A stretch of DNA of 17,058 nt from a virus (Duplodnaviria > Heunggongvirae > Uroviricota > Caudoviricetes). This document shows positions 319 to 17,058 of the stretch, one piece after another (the stretch's first letter is position 1; every line of letters starts with the position of its first letter). The position numbers were made by a program, and so were the translations under genes. A model generated the notes under the pieces. That model made no database searches. It was not told the DNA's origin and worked only from the letters and a program-made list of their open reading frames with translations. The DNA lies in IMG/VR virus record IMGVR_UViG_2609460221_000007, positions 1 through 17,058 of that record; one strand, written 5' to 3'.

Positions 319-711
319 ATGGCAAAAGTATTTACACCAGAAGAGCGGGAAGAAGTGAAGGCGCGCATTGTGGAATTCGTGCGCCTGAGCGGACGAGAAA
401 CTTTTCGACAACTGGCAGATAAAACGGGTGTCAGTAAGACCGCTATTCGTCGTTTATCTGGTGCGCTTGCGGCCAGTGGTGATGTCTGGCTCTCTGGTTG
501 CGGGGTATTTCCATCAGAGCAGGCGTATCGCGTATGGCGTAAGACACCGGAGAAGGCTGCTGACCCGACACTGATTCGAAAGTTACCTGACGGAGAAATA
601 CGTCGTTACAACAGACGGCAGAACATAATTTGTCGTGAGTGCCGCCAGAGCGAAGTCATGCAGCGTGTGCTGGCGTTCTATCGGGGAAACTTTCAGGAGG
701 TGATGGAGTGA
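319..711 (+). CDS. hypothetical protein with possible helix-turn-helix (…FRQLADKTGVSKTAIRRL…)
   Basis: ATG at 319 preceded by GGAGG (309-313). The ORF track extends to a TTG at 304, which is less likely. Stop TGA 709-711 overlaps the next start. Confidence 0.55.
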   Translation: MAKVFTPEEREEVKARIVEFVRLSGRETFRQLADKTGVSKTAIRRLSGALAASGDVWLSGCGVFPSEQAYRVWRKTPEKAADPTLIRKLPDGEIRRYNRRQNIICRECRQSEVMQRVLAFYRGNFQEVME

Positions 712-1004
712 GGGTGAGAGTTTATATTGCCGGTCCAATGACGGGATATGAAAATTTCAACCGTGAGGCGTTTCACAAGGCGGAAGAGGAACTGAAACGG
801 GAAGGGCATACCGTCTTAAACCCGGCAGTACTTCCGGACGGGCTGACACAGCCGCACTACATGGATATTTGCATGGCAATGATTCGTTGTGTGGATGCGA
901 TTTACATGCTGAATGGCTGGCAGCGGTCAGCGGGCGCTAAGGCAGAGCTGGCACTGGCGGAGAAACTGGGGCATGCGGTGATTTATCAGGAGGTGGCTCA
1001 ATGA
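708..1004 (+). CDS. DUF4406-like protein (nucleoside 2-deoxyribosyltransferase-like fold)
   Basis: GTG start at 708, 7 nt after AGGAGG (695-700), overlapping the upstream stop. N-terminal 'VYIAGPMTG' motif followed by 'NPA' and a conserved acidic C-terminal half, as recalled for DUF4406/NDT-like proteins. Confidence 0.5.
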   Translation: MRVRVYIAGPMTGYENFNREAFHKAEEELKREGHTVLNPAVLPDGLTQPHYMDICMAMIRCVDAIYMLNGWQRSAGAKAELALAEKLGHAVIYQEVAQ

Positions 1005-2300: not shown

Positions 2301-2666
2301 ATGGCACTGACGAAAAAACAACGTGCAGAATTGCGCATGAAGTTTGGCGGTCGCTGTGCTTATTGCGGCTGTGAACTTGGCGAAAAGTGGCATGCAGACC
2401 ATGTAAAACCGGTCATTCGTTTTAATGGAAATATGCTTCACCAGGAACGTGACGATATATCCAACATGGTTCCGGCATGCCACCCATGCAATCTGCACAA
2501 GCATTGCAGTAGCCTGGAAGACTATCGGCGAATTATCAGTGATGGTCGTCGTGAATTCCTTGCGTCCGGGAAAGGCAAAGCGCTGGTTCGTATGGGATTG
2601 GTTGAAATGAAATCTGACCCGGTTGTGTTCTGGTTTGAAAAATATCAAGAAGGGGCTACAGCATGA
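2301..2666 (+). CDS. HNH endonuclease
   Basis: Canonical HNH motif directly visible in translation: C-A-Y-C-G…H-A-D-H-V-K-P…N-M-V-P-A-C-H-P-C-N-L-H-K. RBS AAAGGAGA (2288-2295). Confidence 0.8.
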   Translation: MALTKKQRAELRMKFGGRCAYCGCELGEKWHADHVKPVIRFNGNMLHQERDDISNMVPACHPCNLHKHCSSLEDYRRIISDGRREFLASGKGKALVRMGLVEMKSDPVVFWFEKYQEGATA

Positions 2667-3649
2667 CCACTATTACCAATAAGAAACAGTATCCCAGCGA
2701 GCAATATCTTAATGAGCTTATCACCAACATAGAGTTTGCTGCAAGGGCACCAGTTGAAGTCGTGAGCGCAATGGCAGCAGAGCTACAGAAGCGGCGCGAA
2801 GCTGATAGCGCAGAACCAGTTGCTTATATTTTCAAACATCCGGCCGGGAAATTATTCTGGGCTTTAACGGATGAAAGCAATAAAGAGCAAGCGGACGTTA
2901 TTCCTGTTTATGCCGCCCCTCCAGTGCCAGTAGTATCTGAAGAAAAACCAATGCCTAACCCTCTTAAAATGTACGCGGTCGATGATGTTGCCGCTATTGC
3001 AGAGGTGAGAGGCTGGAATGCCTACCGCGCCGCCATGCTTCAGAGTCAGGGGGAAGGCAACCCTCATGTAACCCCGGCTCGCCTGCCTGGTGGTTTCACC
3101 ATTGAGGATGCGAAGGTGTTACATGAAGACCTTGTACGTAGCCACATAAGCCAGGCTTTAAGTGGCGAAAAGATGAAAAAGAAAGATCGCGATGCTGATT
3201 TGCGCTGGATTCATGGCGTAATAGTTCAGGCCGCGTGGTTTGTAAAGGCATCACTGGAGCAGAATGCACTATCGGGCAACTCTCCGGTAATTCCTGGTGA
3301 GGTGTTGTCCGCAATCCGGGAGGTTGCCAGGATTCGCGCCGATTTCGATGATTTTGACGGTGACAGGCGAGGTATCGGTGATTGTCTGGATGAGGCCGAG
3401 CAAGAGCTTATCGTTACCATTAACAAATATGCCAGTCAGTTGGCAGTAGAGCCGGTAGTACCTGATGACGTTCTGGAACAGACAGTAGCGTCGCCAGCGC
3501 TAGGTAACCAGGTTAGCGAATTAACAATGTGGGTTAAACGACTGGTCAGTCAACTGAAAAAAGCTCAGCCGGACTGCAAATTACCGGAGAAGGCGATGGA
3601 TTACCTGAAACGAAATGGACTGATAAGCGTGGAGGATGTTTTACGATGA
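2663..3649 (+). CDS. hypothetical protein (328 aa); N-terminal region paralogous to the 1892-2299 product
   Basis: ATG 2663 overlaps the HNH stop (ATGA-type coupling). Long ORF with phage-like codon usage; contains the 'YAAPPVPVVSE' motif. Confidence 0.65.
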   Translation: MTTITNKKQYPSEQYLNELITNIEFAARAPVEVVSAMAAELQKRREADSAEPVAYIFKHPAGKLFWALTDESNKEQADVIPVYAAPPVPVVSEEKPMPNPLKMYAVDDVAAIAEVRGWNAYRAAMLQSQGEGNPHVTPARLPGGFTIEDAKVLHEDLVRSHISQALSGEKMKKKDRDADLRWIHGVIVQAAWFVKASLEQNALSGNSPVIPGEVLSAIREVARIRADFDDFDGDRRGIGDCLDEAEQELIVTINKYASQLAVEPVVPDDVLEQTVASPALGNQVSELTMWVKRLVSQLKKAQPDCKLPEKAMDYLKRNGLISVEDVLR

Positions 3650-4211: not shown

Positions 4212-4333
4212 AGCAGCAAAAGGCGATGTTAATCGNCCTGATCGTCATCTGTTTAACCGTCATAGTGACGGCACTGGTAACGAGGAAAGACCTCTGCGAG
4301 GTACGAATCCGAACTGGCAGACGGAGGCTCTGA
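4208..4333 (+). CDS. hok: Hok/Gef-family type I toxin (HokD/RelF-like)
   Basis: RBS AGGAGA (4193-4198); translation MKQQKAMLI(x)LIVICLTVIVTALVTRKDLCEVRIRTG… matches the Hok/Gef transmembrane core as recalled. The C-terminal tail as written (…RRRL*) differs from recalled homologues and may reflect a 1-nt indel or sequence error. Confidence 0.75.
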   Translation: MKQQKAMLIXLIVICLTVIVTALVTRKDLCEVRIRTGRRRL

Positions 4334-9613: not shown

Positions 9614-11074
9614 ATGAATACATCTCATGTAAGAGTTGTTACTCATATGTGTGGGTTCCTGGTTTGGCTCTATAGTCTTTCAATGTTGCCACCAATGGTT
9701 GTAGCATTGTTTTATAAAGNAAAAAAGCCTGTTCGTTTTCTTTATAACTTTCGTTATATTTTTTTGCATTGGTGGCGGAGCGTGGTATACAACTAAGAAA
9801 TCTGGCATTCAATTACGTANCCGTGATGGGTTTATTATAATTGTAATGTTTTGGATTTTGTTTTCTGTTATTAGTGCATTCCCTTTATGGATTGACTCAG
9901 AACTTAATTTAACGTTCATTGATGCTCTGTTTGAAGGGGTTTCTGGAATAACAACAACAGGAGCAACTGTAATTGATGATGTTAGTTCATTACCTCGGGC
10001 ATATTTGTACTATCGGTCACAGTTAAATTTTATAGGTGGTTTAGGAGTTATTGTTCTGGCGGTTGCTGTATTGCCATTATTGGGTATTGGTGGTGCAAAG
10101 CTTTATCAGTCAGAAATGCCGGGGCCATTTAAGGATGACAAACTCACTCCCCGCCTGGCCGATACGTCACGGACACTGTGGATAACTTATTCTTTATTAG
10201 GTATTGCTTGTATTGTCTGTTATAGACTTGCAGGAATGCCTTTGTTTGATGCTATTTGTCACGGGATTTCCACAGTTTCGCTTGGTGGTTTCTCAACTCA
10301 TAGCGAGAGTATCGGATATTTTAATAACTATTTGGTTGAGCTGGTGGCTGGTTCTTTTTCCCTGCTATCGGCTTTCAACTTCACTCTTTGGTATATTGTT
10401 ATTAGCAGGAAAACGATAAAACCTTTAATCAGAGATATTGAACTTCGTTTCTTTCTGTTAATAGCCTTAGGGGTGATCATTGTTACCTCTTTCCAGGTCT
10501 GGCATATAGGTATGTATGACTTGCATGGAAGTTTTATTCATTCGTTTTTTCTTGCCAGCTCCATGCTCACTGATAATGGTTTAGCTACGCAGGATTATGC
10601 AAGTTGGCCCACGCACACGATAGTGTTTTTGCTGTTGTCAAGTTTCTTTGGGGGATGTATAGGTTCAACTTGTGGTGGAATTAAGTCACTTCGATTTCTT
10701 ATACTTTTCAAACAAAGCAAACACGAGATAAATCAGCTTTCTCATCCCAGAGCGTTGTTGAGTGTAAATGTAGGAGGGAAGATAGTTACAGATCGTGTAA
10801 TGAGGTCTGTATGGAGTTTCNTTTTTTCTTTATACTCTCTTCACGGTGTTTTTTATACTGGTGTTAAATGGTATGGGATATGATTTTCTTACATCATTTG
10901 CAACAGTGGCTGCATGTATTAATAATATGGGATTAGGTTTTGGGGCTACTGCATCGTCATTCGGAGTGCTTAATGACATTGCAAAATGTTTAATGTGCAT
11001 AGCTATGATTCTTGGTCGCCTTGAAATTTATCCTGTTATTATATTGTTTTCAGGNTTTTTTTTGGCGCTCCTAA
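9614..11074 (+). CDS. trkG: potassium uptake protein TrkG (Trk system membrane component); reading frame interrupted only at ambiguous bases
   Basis: Three consecutive ORF fragments (frames shift at n 9720, n 10821, n 11055, each in a homopolymer run) together translate to a TrkH/TrkG-type polytopic transporter starting MNTSHVRVV… and ending …FFWRS* when the frame is corrected. AT-rich. Known cargo of Rac-type prophages. Confidence 0.8.
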
Positions 11075-11160
11075 TATATGGCTGATTTATAATTGTGAGT
11101 TTAATATTATGTTGACTCACTCATTGATCCAATACCTAACTTTACCAGCAACACCTCCGT

Positions 11161-11195
11161 CCCCAGTAGCACTGGCTGCTGGGGTGCGTTTTATT
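11161..11195 (+). terminator. putative terminator after trkG
   Basis: 10-bp stem CCCCAGTAGC/GCTGCTGGGG (one G-U) with ACTG loop, followed by TGCGTTTTATT; the U-tract is offset by 4 nt, so strength is uncertain. Confidence 0.4.
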
Positions 11196-11211
11196 CATAA
11201 AGCAAGGCTGT

Positions 11212-12003
11212 ATGAGCGAGAAATTAAAGATAGTCTATCGCCCATTACAAGAATTGTCACCGTATGCGCACAACGCCAGGACGCACAGTACTGAGCAGGT
11301 GGCACAACTGGTAGAAAGTATTAAGCAATTCGGCTGGACTAATCCGGTGCTGATTGACGAAAAGGGCGAAATTATTGCGGGTCACGGTCGTGTTATGGCG
11401 GCTGAAATGCTCAAAATGGATTCTGTTCCGGTCATTGTTCTGTCTGGCCTGACGGATGAGCAGAAAAAGGCGTACCGCCTGGCAGATAATCGCCTGCCGA
11501 TGAATGCTGGCTGGGATGAAGATCTGTTGCGGATGGAGCTGTCGGACCTAATCAATGCTGATTTTGATGTCTCCCTGACAGGCTTCATCCCGACAGAAAT
11601 TGATGAACTGTTGACGGATGTTTTGCCCGGTACAGGAAATGAGGAGGAGCCGTATACGACGAAAATTGATACGCCTGTTTATGAGCCGTCGGGCGGTAAA
11701 CCGGATATCAGTGAACTGTACGACGATACGAAAACTCAGGAGCTGATCAGCCGGATACGTTCGGCGTCCCTTGAGCCTGATATTGAGAAATTCCTCCTGT
11801 GTGCGGCAGAACGTCACACGGTGTTTAATTTCAGCAGAATTGCGGACTATTACGCTCACGCCCCCTCTGAAATTCAGTGTTTTTTCGAGGAGTCGGCGCT
11901 GGTGATCATTGATTATCAGCAGGCTATTGAAAATGGATTTGTCCGGATGACGCAGCGCATGGTGGAGATCATGCATGGTGGTGAGGAGGAGGAATATGCG
12001 TGA
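11212..12003 (+). CDS. ParB-like nuclease domain (ParB/Srx N-terminal domain) protein
   Basis: N-terminal region with the characteristic …PVLIDEKGEIIAGHGRVMAA… ParB-N motif; acidic C-terminus; stop overlaps the next start. Confidence 0.75.
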   Translation: MSEKLKIVYRPLQELSPYAHNARTHSTEQVAQLVESIKQFGWTNPVLIDEKGEIIAGHGRVMAAEMLKMDSVPVIVLSGLTDEQKKAYRLADNRLPMNAGWDEDLLRMELSDLINADFDVSLTGFIPTEIDELLTDVLPGTGNEEEPYTTKIDTPVYEPSGGKPDISELYDDTKTQELISRIRSASLEPDIEKFLLCAAERHTVFNFSRIADYYAHAPSEIQCFFEESALVIIDYQQAIENGFVRMTQRMVEIMHGGEEEEYA

Positions 12004-12928
12004 TGATTTTTGCGCCTTTATTCTGACTCACGGGCGACCGGACAAAGTTCTGACTTACCGGACGTTGCGTCGTGCTGGCTATACCGGGAAAATTTTTATC
12101 GTTGTTGATGATGAAGATAAGACACGGCATCAGTACATGGCTGAATTTGGGGAACAGGTGCTGGTGTTTTCCAAAGCCGATATCGCCAGTCGTTTTGACG
12201 AAGCCGATAATTTCTGTGACCGCCGCTCAATTTTTTACGCCCGTAATGCCTGTTTCGACCTGGCAAAACTGGTCGGGTGTAAATACTTCATTCAGCTCGA
12301 TGATGATTATCACGAGTTCCAGTTTCGGGTGGATCGCAACTATGACCAGGCCTATTTTCCGATAAGGAAACTGGATGCGATCCTTTCTGAAATGCTGGCG
12401 TACTACGAATCAATACCTGCTCTTTCCATCGCTATGTCGCAGGGCGGGGATTTTCTTGGTGACAATGGCGGCCATGCTTCGTGGGTGAAACGCAAGGCAA
12501 TGAACAGCTTTATCTGTTCGGTTGAACGACCGTTCTCATTCATGGGGCGCATTAACGAGGATGTGAATACGTACACGAATCTCGGTCGCTGTGGTGAATT
12601 GTTTATGACGATCGGTGCTGTCCAGTTAGGGCAGAAACAGACGCAGAAAAACAGCGGCGGAATGACCGAGCTGTATCTGGATTCCGGAACCTACGTTAAA
12701 AGTTTTTACTCCGTCATGTATGCGCCGTCGTGCGTAAAAATCTCACTGATGGGTGCCAGCCATAAACGCATTCACCATCAGGTCACCTGGAACAACGCTG
12801 CAGTAAAAATCCTTCACGAAAAATACAGGAAGAAGACACCCTGCATATCAATGGGGGTGACAAATGATTCCGTATTCGAAAGTCGAGTCTCTGGCAGCGT
12901 GCCGGATGACTGCACAACAAATCGCTGA
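11996..12928 (+). CDS. GT-A-fold glycosyltransferase-like protein (nucleotide-sugar transferase-like, DxD motif)
   Basis: ATG 11996 preceded by GGAGGAGG, overlapping the ParB-like stop (ATGCGTGA). Translation shows AFILTHGRP…IFIVVDDED…FIQLDDDY, the beta-strand/DxD pattern of GT-A enzymes; no TM segments. Function inferred from motif only. Confidence 0.55.
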   Translation: MRDDFCAFILTHGRPDKVLTYRTLRRAGYTGKIFIVVDDEDKTRHQYMAEFGEQVLVFSKADIASRFDEADNFCDRRSIFYARNACFDLAKLVGCKYFIQLDDDYHEFQFRVDRNYDQAYFPIRKLDAILSEMLAYYESIPALSIAMSQGGDFLGDNGGHASWVKRKAMNSFICSVERPFSFMGRINEDVNTYTNLGRCGELFMTIGAVQLGQKQTQKNSGGMTELYLDSGTYVKSFYSVMYAPSCVKISLMGASHKRIHHQVTWNNAAVKILHEKYRKKTPCISMGVTNDSVFESRVSGSVPDDCTTNR

Positions 12929-13118: not shown

Positions 13119-14213
13119 ATGAGCAGACCGGACTGGGGGGCGTTGCAGCAGGAGTATATTGCTGAATACACCCGCTCCGGTATATCTCCGGTGGCATGGT
13201 GTGAAGCAAGGGGACTGAATTACGCAACAGCCCGTCGTTACATCAAAAAAACTCCGAAAAATGCGCAGACAGAAATGTGCAAAACTGCGCAAAAAAGTGC
13301 GCAGAAAAAATCTGCGCAGACTGCACAAAAGCGGAACGAAAAATCTCAGGAAAAAAAGCCAGTATTCGATGCGGGCCTGAATGAGGGCGACGCGGAGGAA
13401 TTTTCGTTCTGTCCCGATGAATTCGGCATTTCTGACCAGCAGGCTAAGTTTGCGATGCTTGTTGCTCAGGGTAAAAAGCCGACAGAGGCGTACCGACTAG
13501 CCGGTTATGAGGGGCAAGGTGCGACAGCTAATAGCAACGCCAGTCGTATGCTTAGAAATGCCAGGGTTTTTCGCGCTATCAGCTACTTCCGCAATCAGTA
13601 CCAGAAACGCTATACCGCAGACCTGGATTTACTAGTGAGTCAGTTGATGGCCATTGTCCTGGCCGACCCCAATCAGCTTGCACAATTTCGCCGTGTTAAC
13701 TGCCGTTATTGCTGGGGCGAGAATCATCTCTACCAGTGGCGCGATATAGCAGAATTCGACAAGGCAGCGGCGCAGGCTTCCAGAGATGGCAAACCCGAAC
13801 CGGAATATGGANGCCTCGGCTTTGTTGATAACGCCATACCCAATCCGGACTGCCCGAAGTGCTGCGGTGAGGGAACGGGACAGCTTTATATGGCTGATAC
13901 CACTCTGCTTGATGGGGATGCGCGGCAATTATATGCAGGGGCAAAATTCGGAAAATTCGGCGTTGAGATCCTGCTGGAGGATAAGGCTGCCGCCCGGCGT
14001 GAATTGTTGCGTTTGCTTTCTGCTGGCGGGGCTTTATGTGCAGATAAGCGGCTACAGGAACTGGAAATTGAACGGCGCAGAATGGAAAACCAGAAGCTGC
14101 GCAAAGAGATCGAAACGGTGGAAGATAATGAACATCCCCAGCCTGTGGCGATCAATATTAATGTGGTTGATGCCAGAGTAAGGAGTGATGAAGATGATCT
14201 CTCCGACGCTTAA
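13119..14213 (+). CDS. terminase small subunit (Terminase_2-like core with N-terminal HTH and C-terminal CxxC…CxxC zinc-ribbon/coiled coil)
   Basis: Core …AKFAMLVAQGKKPTEAYRLAGYEGQGATANSNASRMLRNARVFRAISYF… is typical of phage TerS; immediately upstream of the large terminase; one ambiguous codon (n 13811). Confidence 0.7.
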   Translation: MSRPDWGALQQEYIAEYTRSGISPVAWCEARGLNYATARRYIKKTPKNAQTEMCKTAQKSAQKKSAQTAQKRNEKSQEKKPVFDAGLNEGDAEEFSFCPDEFGISDQQAKFAMLVAQGKKPTEAYRLAGYEGQGATANSNASRMLRNARVFRAISYFRNQYQKRYTADLDLLVSQLMAIVLADPNQLAQFRRVNCRYCWGENHLYQWRDIAEFDKAAAQASRDGKPEPEYGXLGFVDNAIPNPDCPKCCGEGTGQLYMADTTLLDGDARQLYAGAKFGKFGVEILLEDKAAARRELLRLLSAGGALCADKRLQELEIERRRMENQKLRKEIETVEDNEHPQPVAININVVDARVRSDEDDLSDA

Positions 14214-15495
14214 TGTGCCTCAGGCGCGATTTCTTTCAATGCCCCATAAATTTAAAGCCTATATTGCTGGTTTTGGCTCGGGCAAAACATGGGTTGGGTG
14301 TGGCGGCATATGCAAGGGGATTTGGGAGCATCCAGGTATAAATCAGGGATATTTTGCGCCAACGTATCCCCAAATTCGCGATATTTTTTACCCTACAGTG
14401 GAAGAAGTTGCTGCTGACTGGGGATTGAACGTAAAAATTAATGAGGGAAATAAAGAGGTTCACTTTTATTACGGACGCCAGTATCGGGGAACCACTATCT
14501 GCAGATCGATGGAGAAGCCACAAACGATCGTCGGTTTCAAAATTGGTAATGCGTTGGTGGATGAACTGGACATTTTGCCGAAGGAAAAAGCCAGAACGGC
14601 GTGGCGCAAGATAATTGCACGTATGCGTTATAAGATTGATGGACTTCGCAACGGTATTGACGTTACAACCACGCCGGAAGGATTCAAATTTGTCTACGAG
14701 CAGTTTGTTAAAGCCGTGCGTGAAAAAACAGAGCTGGCCTCACTGTATGGTCTGGTGCAGGCATCTACTTTCGATAATGAAAAGAACCTGCCAGCAGATT
14801 ACATTCCTTCGCTTCTTGAATCATACCCTCCAGAGCTGATTAAAGCCTATCTTCGAGGACAGTTTACTAACCTGACAAGTGGTACTGTTTACCATCAGTT
14901 TGACCGGAAACTGAATAATTGCGAAGAAGTGGAGCAGCCAGGGGAGCCGATTTATATTGGGATGGATTTTAACGTTGGAAAGATGGCGGGAATCGTCCAT
15001 GTGCTGCGTTTGGGGCTTCCATGTGCGGTAACTGAAATCATCAATGCCTACGATACGCCGGATATGATCCGCATCATTAAAGAACGCTTCTGGCTGTATG
15101 ATGGGAATGATTACCGGAAAGTGAGGGAAATTTATATTTATCCAGATGCTTCCGGGGATTCCAGAAAATCAAGTAACGCAAGTACGACGGATATAGCCCA
15201 GCTTAAGCAGGCTGGTTTTAACGTTGTGGTGAACAGCTCGAACCCGCCAGTAAAAGATCGCGTTAACTCAATGAATGCAATGTTCTGCAATGCCAATGGT
15301 GAGCGTCGCTATAAAGTTAATGTGAAGCGTTGCCCGTTATATGCCGAATCTCTGGAGCAACAGGTCTGGGATGAGAAGGGGGAGCCTGATAAAAAATCTG
15401 GCAATGATCACCCGAATGATGCCGGAGGTTATTTCATCGTTAAGCAATTCCCTATTGTCAAACCGACCGGAAGAGTCACATCACTTCGGATTTAA
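14194..15495 (+). CDS. terminase large subunit
   Basis: Walker A-like AGFGSGKTW near the N-terminus, acidic nuclease-like C-terminal half; start chosen at ATG 14194 (8 nt after AGGAG); in-frame alternatives at 14185 or 14188. Confidence 0.85.
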   Translation: MISPTLNVPQARFLSMPHKFKAYIAGFGSGKTWVGCGGICKGIWEHPGINQGYFAPTYPQIRDIFYPTVEEVAADWGLNVKINEGNKEVHFYYGRQYRGTTICRSMEKPQTIVGFKIGNALVDELDILPKEKARTAWRKIIARMRYKIDGLRNGIDVTTTPEGFKFVYEQFVKAVREKTELASLYGLVQASTFDNEKNLPADYIPSLLESYPPELIKAYLRGQFTNLTSGTVYHQFDRKLNNCEEVEQPGEPIYIGMDFNVGKMAGIVHVLRLGLPCAVTEIINAYDTPDMIRIIKERFWLYDGNDYRKVREIYIYPDASGDSRKSSNASTTDIAQLKQAGFNVVVNSSNPPVKDRVNSMNAMFCNANGERRYKVNVKRCPLYAESLEQQVWDEKGEPDKKSGNDHPNDAGGYFIVKQFPIVKPTGRVTSLRI

Positions 15496-15497
15496 TT

Positions 15498-17058
<1,561 letters not shown>

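Follow-up and report, generated by a model that had tools for sequence, protein, structure and literature searches.

A 17,058-nucleotide stretch of caudoviral DNA (IMG/VR record IMGVR_UViG_2609460221_000007; hereafter the window) corresponds to an intact Rac-like lambdoid prophage, as judged by the annotated copy in NZ_CP033884, and carries ahead of its terminase genes two overlapping open reading frames (ORFs) that we read as a translationally coupled pair. ORF1 is a full-length ynaK, whose product begins with a ParB/Srx N-domain, and from ORF2 an intact TAGT-family sugar-nucleotide transferase with a GT-A fold is predicted. The module is widespread and matches the catalogued 'ParB-terminase locus' type. 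We propose, with a confidence a little short of even, that it is a two-protein, late-expressed, ParB-assisted DNA-glycosylation module of the Rac-type lambdoid phage.

The TAGT family (TET-associated glycosyltransferase, Pfam PF20691) includes the T2/T6 enzyme that adds the second glucose to glucosyl-hydroxymethylcytosine, and 288 of 753 TAGT-encoding phages carry a solitary TAGT with no assigned role (PMC13216743). Of roughly 25,000 phage contigs with a glycosyltransferase, about 65% lack a 5mYOX or ThyS gene nearby, and ParB, terminase, clamp and epimerase genes recur beside phage glycosyltransferases (preprint 10.1101/2023.12.21.572611). ParB-fold proteins bind various nucleoside triphosphates (NTPs) and are frequently fused to methyltransferases in prophages (PMC12704722), and a phage thymine dioxygenase needs a ParB-like protein without a DNA-binding domain to work on double-stranded DNA (PMC13229309). 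The phage 'ParB-terminase large subunit loci' defined by the Aravind group are predicted to modify DNA during packaging (PMC4738411; restated in PMC8256090), and both papers cite Iyer et al. 2013, the source of the TAGT and ParB-terminase concepts.

The overlapping genes and their products

The first-pass annotation of this DNA, made from its letters alone, had described the two ORFs as overlapping by 8 nt, and so they do (ATGCGTGA; start codon of ORF2 against stop codon of ynaK, Table 1). The ORF2 frame is open to 12928 from an ATG at 11975 or at 11996, and the NCBI annotation of an identical copy starts at 11996. Neither ORF is a chance frame: each has thousands of homologue clusters, and the overlapping gene order recurs in unrelated phages. 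No membrane segments are present in either product, with maximal 19-residue Kyte-Doolittle means of 1.25 for ORF1 and 1.08 for ORF2, in agreement with the earlier view that ORF2 is unlikely to be an O-antigen Gtr enzyme.

ORF2 matches the Pfam TAGT model PF20691 (1.1e-34, 120.6 bits against a cut-off of 27.5; residues 8-222, profile positions 4-205 of 205) and phrog_842 (1.6e-103), and the PHROG annotation carries the name of the T2/T6 enzyme over to it. Its closest predicted viral structures are TAGT-domain proteins, and its fold is GT-A (nucleotide-diphospho-sugar transferase) with a DxD motif; nucleotidyltransferases, which belong to the same fold class, are among the fold matches. Searching solved structures by sequence gave no match for ORF2. 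The motifs from which a GT-A strand/DxD pattern had been proposed, FILTHGRP, IVVDDED and QLDDDY, are all present (residues 8-15, 33-40 and 100-105), and both the TAGT profile and the GT-A fold bear that proposal out. The conserved motifs comprise R14, D38/D41, the DxD at D102-D104 and N187-E188-D189. R14, D102-D104, N187 and D189, together with the C-terminal block GGMT.LY..GTYVKSFYSVM..R.HH, are invariant in relatives down to 33-48% identity, that of a haloarchaeal virus included, and the pattern fits the R...DDD...ED(Y/F) active-site motifs of DNA-glycosylating phage GT-A enzymes (preprint 10.1101/2023.12.21.572611). Outside the Pfam model lies a basic (isoelectric point (pI) 9.6), subfamily-specific C-terminal region (223-288), and the final 22 residues are specific to the Escherichia coli lineage; the structure model has low confidence at residues 218-310. 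The family counts more than 8,000 clusters, and its members are named 'GREB1-related protein' in UniProt and NCBI.

YnaK consists of several distinct parts. Residues 1-95 form the ParB/Srx N-domain (Pfam PF02195 ParB_N above threshold, the fold in agreement), so that profile and fold matches both support the domain that the first-pass annotation had recognized from the letters GHGR. This motif, G57-H58-G59-R60, aligns with the GERR box of Noc and ParB (box II, GxxR) and is a putative phosphate-binding box II GxxR motif; across 26 relatives G57, G59 and R60 do not vary. Over residues 10-144 YnaK matches phrog_498 (9e-51) and the N-terminal part of ParB-DNA methyltransferase fusions (1.5e-38), the latter being its sole match among the PADLOC defence models. 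Searched by sequence against solved structures, YnaK matched ParB N-domains alone, and its top fold matches include sulfiredoxin, SerK and SbnI, all of the ParB/Srx fold. The N-domain is followed by an acidic, helical stretch (100-135), a predicted disordered linker (136-167) with the invariant motif Y148-T149-x-K151-x3-P155-x-Y157-x-P159, and a helical C-terminal module (170-255; C-module) with neither a Pfam nor a fold match. In the structure model, confidence is moderate only at 170-229 and low at 230-263.

ORF1 had also been called a nuclease, a label that comes from the historical domain name alone and finds no support here; no nuclease family matched YnaK. A partition ParB of the ParABS type was considered and rejected: the TIGR00180 score of 38 bits falls short of the cut-off (58), the protein is acidic and has no recognisable helix-turn-helix, and no parA is annotated in the prophage. 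A literature search for ynaK found nothing on its function.

Conservation of the pair across phages

In all 80 close viral contigs a ParB gene immediately precedes that of the transferase. Where these contigs reach downstream (n = 75), a 69-residue ORF follows in every one (57-100% identity) and the small terminase subunit in 72, while the large terminase subunit and lysis genes are often unrelated; in the other five, the transferase match is truncated and no downstream genes were found. We also sampled 80 diverse contigs with 43-58% identity to a Lactobacillus homologue, using crude ORF calling and clustering. Of the 78 diverse loci with a called transferase ORF, 73 contain a member of the YnaK-like cluster, nearly always immediately upstream of that ORF, and the called ORFs overlap in most (apparent overlaps of 4-59 nt under crude calling). 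The pair stands just 5' of the terminase genes in most of the 80. The co-occurrence that the first-pass annotation had suggested looking at is thus found in both samples, and its description of the two ORFs as a single unit is upheld by a conserved gene pair at the head of the packaging module.

The same arrangement, an overlapping pair just 5' of the terminase, occurs in two metagenomic phages (with HK97-type and lambda-GpA-type terminases) and in Lactobacillus gasseri phage jlb1. It is also seen in the virulent L. delbrueckii phage c5, in the order holin, lysin, HNH, cos, ParB, TAGT, two small ORFs and large terminase, and in Nocardia phage NTR1, where an unannotated 282-residue Orf1 comes before the transferase gene and the pair is directly 5' of the large terminase gene, with no small subunit annotated. 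In HHTV-2, a haloarchaeal virus, about 3 kb separate the pair from the large terminase subunit gene downstream of it. The exceptions among the diverse loci include two transferase genes that begin at a contig end, a third locus that has a second TAGT copy and less than 200 bases of upstream sequence, and three further loci in which a radical S-adenosylmethionine (radical-SAM) gene stands 3' of the transferase in place of the ParB-like gene.

A radical-SAM enzyme gene directly follows one or two TAGT genes in loci L121, L141, L145, L150 and L166 (at about 8866-9825 in L166). Three of these five have no ParB-like gene, and the contig of a fourth stops just upstream. No named family comes close to the enzyme (best match 1.5e-11, to a tungsten-cofactor maturase model), which might make the acceptor or tailor the sugar in its lineage.

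Further enzymes accompany the pair. Tandem transferase copies occur in some diverse loci, usually two and in one case four, and in six or seven loci the next gene after the transferase encodes a nucleoside-diphosphate (NDP)-sugar epimerase/dehydratase. The flanks of the diverse loci gave 73 distinct protein clusters, in which DNA N6/N4-methyltransferases outnumber every other non-structural family. One metagenomic locus with the pair before the terminase (L082) also has two GT2-family genes just after the capsid gene (15837-16894), possibly a virion-glycosylation or second sugar-modification cassette.

The C-module of YnaK has its own distribution. Among 1.84 billion representative proteins we found 1,189 C-module clusters, in which the module stands either alone or behind ParB_N and is never fused to a transferase. 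Ten clusters were examined; eight have ParB_N and two short ones have no Pfam domain, and the lengths of the other listed matches fit these two forms. The stand-alone form has 130 residues, corresponds to YnaK residues of about 145-255 and starts exactly at the YTxK...PxYxP motif. In every context examined the C-module adjoins a TAGT gene. This includes eight loci with phage replication genes, where a family-A DNA polymerase gene has one or two TAGT copies 3' of it, mostly with a sliding-clamp-like gene next in line, and the 130-residue C-module protein accompanies them. The lone C-module beside TAGT genes in the polymerase loci means that it is the part of YnaK that travels with the transferase; the ParB domain is an add-on. 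Five loci (L170 at 5794-about 10000, L099, L130, L146 and L153) combine one to four TAGT genes and a lone 130-residue C-module with a family-A polymerase and/or clamp-like gene. The four TAGT copies of L170 are in tandem, which suggests stepwise oligosaccharide assembly.

The first-pass annotation had allowed for the pair matching an already characterised module, and this is half the case: TAGT and the ParB-terminase neighbourhood have been described, computationally (PMC4738411, PMC8256090). The class is already catalogued, and the pair is therefore not categorically new.

Candidate targets of the transferase

In the proposed DNA-glycosylation module the transferase would be the catalyst, docked by the C-module and linker motif of YnaK, and the ParB domain, as a nucleotide-gated adaptor or activator, would enable the enzyme to work on double-stranded phage DNA, by analogy with the ParB-like protein of the phage thymine dioxygenase. 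A hexose from a host uridine-diphosphate (UDP)-sugar would be transferred to replicated phage DNA shortly before or during packaging, and the sugar would shield the injected genome against restriction or other DNA-targeting defences; this anti-restriction role we purely infer. The DNA- or protein-modification role suggested earlier is a reasonable reading.

The closest functional parallel to YnaK appears to be a ParB-like activator of a phage DNA-modifying enzyme. Like YnaK, ParB176 of the 5mYOX176/ParB176 system (PMC13229309) combines a nucleotide-binding-type N-domain with a C-domain and has no obvious DNA-binding domain, and its gene lies beside that of a post-replicative DNA-modifying enzyme, often near glycosyltransferase and terminase genes. 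However, the enzyme partner is an iron/2-oxoglutarate dioxygenase in that system and a glycosyltransferase in ours, and the likeness is one of architecture and adjacency. ParB-DNA methyltransferase fusions and the Aravind locus share with our pair the match to YnaK 10-144 and the position next to the terminase. The fusions have the methyltransferase attached, whereas here a separate, apparently translationally coupled glycosyltransferase would be linked through the C-terminal module.

On the side of the transferase, ORF2 resembles the base J glucosyltransferase (JGT) and the phage GT-A enzymes associated with 5mYOX (Pyle et al.) in its R...DDD...ED(Y/F) motifs. The gene clusters of those enzymes have transferases in series or a sugar epimerase as partner, both of which occur in relatives of this locus. 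Such TAGT tandems and epimerase/dehydratase genes echo the architectures of proven DNA-glycosylation clusters and speak for a DNA target. The T2/T6 beta-glucosyl-hydroxymethylcytosine-alpha-glucosyltransferase is, like ORF2, a soluble PF20691 phage enzyme with a GT-A fold and DxD. The relationship is remote: when T-even TAGTs were sought by tblastn, neither ORF2 nor an Aeromonas T4-like homologue used as the next query led to the T2/T6 enzyme. The T-even phages, unlike this pair, have no ParB partner.

Several observations weigh against DNA glycosylation, and the missing acceptor and the acidity of YnaK are its weak points. Neither annotation nor searches show a TET/5mYOX dioxygenase, a thymidylate-synthase-like hydroxymethylase or a C5-methyltransferase in the window or the whole prophage, none of the three is annotated in the complete 31.8-kb genome of phage c5, and neither TET_JBP nor thymidylate synthase is among the top 25 neighbour families listed (Pfam, PHROG) for the 80 diverse loci. 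To our knowledge, every characterised DNA glycosyltransferase requires a hydroxyl on the modified base or on a sugar. JGT and the 5mYOX-associated enzymes use 5-hydroxymethyl-uracil or -cytosine from a neighbouring dioxygenase, and no such gene is found here; the T6 enzyme extends a glucose on 5-hydroxymethylcytosine and needs a deoxycytidine-monophosphate hydroxymethylase and an alpha-glucosyltransferase, neither of which is in this prophage. The link that gave TAGT its name, to a TET/JBP dioxygenase or another source of hydroxymethyl bases, is likewise missing, although that link is an association and no requirement of the Pfam model. YnaK has a pI of 4.5 and a net charge of -25, all 26 aligned relatives are likewise acidic, and a helix-turn-helix was sought past the N-domain with no family or fold match. 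DNA binding by YnaK is not evident because the protein is strongly acidic and has no recognisable helix-turn-helix. Moreover, the ParB-TAGT type has been described by computation only, and GREB1, an animal protein of the TAGT family, attaches O-linked N-acetylglucosamine (O-GlcNAc) to a protein, the oestrogen receptor (PMC7968844). It is conceivable, if unlikely, that the sugar is placed on DNA without hydroxymethylpyrimidine, that is, on a canonical base, the backbone or a host-made mark, with a ParB-fold switch that loads or activates the enzyme via the docking module.

The main rival to DNA glycosylation is O-glycosylation of a protein, which we consider rather unlikely. The sugar would go to Tyr/Thr residues of the YnaK linker (Y148-T149...Y157) or to a packaging, virion or host defence protein, and YnaK would be the substrate or a targeting subunit. 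GREB1, whose TAGT-family domain O-GlcNAcylates the oestrogen receptor (PMC7968844), gives a precedent for a protein target. It otherwise differs from ORF2, being a cytoplasmic protein of 1949 amino acids that modifies a transcription factor, with no ParB partner and no phage context. Such a target also accords with the finding of no enzyme that would make a DNA acceptor, and a protein-linked glycan could be extended by tandem transferases. The invariant YTxK(I/V)xxPxYxP, which lies in a predicted disordered segment and at the exact start of the lone C-module proteins, would be a fitting acceptor peptide, but a docking motif explains the conserved linker equally well. The partner has the ParB module that other phages fuse to DNA methyltransferases, enzymes that are also the commonest non-structural neighbours, and the pair adjoins DNA polymerase and clamp genes or the terminase, not capsid or tail genes; all of this argues against a protein target.

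A small-molecule target is quite improbable. Here the pair would act on a nucleotide or another small molecule, for instance to inactivate a defence signalling nucleotide or modify a nucleotide pool, and the ParB/Srx domain would bind or phosphorylate the substrate in the manner of sulfiredoxin or a serine kinase. ATP-dependent enzymes with substrates other than DNA do belong to the ParB/Srx fold, with sulfiredoxin, SerK and SbnI high among the fold matches of YnaK, proteins of the ParB fold can bind various NTPs (PMC12704722), nucleotidyltransferases appear among the fold matches of the transferase, and YnaK is acidic and has no DNA-binding domain. By sequence family, however, ORF2 is a TAGT with DxD and no nucleotidyltransferase, late expression by the terminase would be poor timing against early defence signalling, and the neighbourhood is one of DNA enzymes. 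Very improbable is a non-catalytic packaging accessory, in which YnaK would be a pac-site or DNA-organising factor of the ParB kind and the fold of the transferase would be structural only. The constant place by the terminase fits such a role, as does NTR1, where the pair is directly before the large terminase gene and no small subunit is annotated, but from bacteria to archaeal viruses the transferase keeps its catalytic residues unchanged, sugar-nucleotide enzymes and additional transferase copies accompany the pair, and it also occurs away from terminases, in replication modules. The least probable reading is lysogenic conversion, in which the transferase, like the prophage enzymes Gtr and TarP, would modify O-antigen or some other polymer of the envelope. 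The O-antigen/Gtr version was rejected for its lack of membrane segments and Gtr-type neighbours; no flippase or GtrA/B partner is annotated in the prophage. Carriers of the pair include a virulent phage, c5, and a haloarchaeal virus; it is linked to ParB, polymerase, clamp and terminase genes, and has a late-operon location with no promoter-like site.

Prophage context and significance

The prophage in NZ_CP033884 has its integration site next to ttcA and extends from intR to pinQ, with the gene order holin, lysozyme, Rz, trkG, ynaK, ORF2, 69-residue ORF, small terminase, large terminase and portal; its copy of the pair is identical to 11212-12928 of the window. A 2.1-kb region spanning the pair has at least 99.5% identity to ten induced-prophage records and was matched in 1,619 of 5,426 complete E. 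coli genomes, with at least 80% query coverage in 889, about one in six, which we take to have the prophage intact. In K-12 MG1655, ynaK is an 87-residue remnant fused by deletion to ydaY, and this strain is without the C-terminal two thirds of YnaK, ORF2 and the entire packaging and head region. The NCBI pipeline calls the 263-codon ynaK a pseudogene 'missing C-terminus' (window 11212-11469 against 14212-14469 of locus L001), apparently because its reference is the 87-residue K-12 deletion remnant, and names ORF2 'hypothetical protein' despite its passing the Pfam TAGT threshold.

Table 1 Features at and around the ynaK-ORF2 pair (window coordinates)
Feature	Position	Strand	Details
trkG, potassium transporter	about 9616-11073		Between lysis genes and ORF1
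Terminator-like hairpin with T tract	11161..11194	+	10-pair stem, 7 G-C, then TGCGTTTTAT; between trkG and ynaK
ORF1, full-length ynaK	11212..12003	+	263 amino acids
Junction of predicted coupling	11983..12003	+	Shine-Dalgarno-like GAGGAGGAGGA 11983-11993; ORF2 ATG 11996-11998; ynaK TGA 12001-12003
ORF2, TAGT-family GT-A glycosyltransferase (predicted)	11996..12928	+	310 amino acids
Basic ORF of 69 amino acids	12906..13115	+	23-nt overlap with ORF2 end; phrog_309 'terminase small subunit' 8e-23; pI 9.2
Small terminase subunit	13119-14213	+	Pfam Terminase_2, phrog_51; NCBI annotation of identical copy
Large terminase subunit	14185/14194-15495	+	Pfam Terminase_2, phrog_51; NCBI annotation of identical copy

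The first-pass annotation had placed the pair between the lysis and packaging modules. It does stand ahead of the terminase genes (Table 1), but trkG intervenes between the lysis genes and ORF1, a gene that had been missed along with the Rac prophage and the identity of ynaK. The hairpin that follows trkG, at 11161-11184, probably serves the trkG insert as its terminator. A search of the + strand over 10926-12183 gave no sigma-70-like site, and so none between hairpin and ynaK. Given the absence of a promoter-like site upstream and the hairpin after trkG, the pair would therefore be transcribed from the antiterminated late transcript, and we infer that late transcription passes through the hairpin.

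The window contains N characters at 4236, 5417, 7972, 9469, 9720, 9820, 10821, 11055 and 13812. Those at 9720, 10821 and 11055 are additional bases relative to an otherwise identical E. coli genome and cut trkG into three ORFs; the broken trkG frame is an assembly/consensus artefact and no true pseudogene.

Downstream, the 69-residue ORF matches only an internal segment of the small-terminase PHROG; it may be a split-off terminase DNA-recognition domain or a third member of the unit. The 364-residue small terminase next to it diverges down to about 40% identity. In the early region, an ORF at 639-1004 (+) matches DUF4406 (1e-37) and phrog_355 'nucleoside 2-deoxyribosyltransferase', a nucleotide-related accessory. 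It has no counterpart in the early region of the near-identical NZ_CP033884 prophage and is hence no obligatory partner of the pair. An HNH endonuclease ORF at 2301-2666 (+; Pfam HNH 1.8e-7, phrog_2118 1e-56) is followed by a 328-residue ORF at 2663-3649 (+) with mosaic matches to several PHROGs, and the early region with the HNH ORF differs from the reference Rac-like prophage and has a recombinant look.

The deletion of this prophage region in K-12 is probably why the locus escaped study. If the target turned out to be a protein, or the DNA mark a minor one, the result would be a routine annotation improvement for a ynaK miscalled as a pseudogene and a hypothetical ORF2. If the target were DNA free of hydroxymethylpyrimidine, this would be the first post-replicative DNA glycosylation independent of 5-hydroxymethylcytosine or 5-hydroxymethyluracil. 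A large class of phage glycosyltransferases is left unexplained by recent surveys, and the pair offers a tractable E. coli entry to what orphan TAGTs glycosylate and to whether ParB-fold adaptors serve glycosyltransferases.

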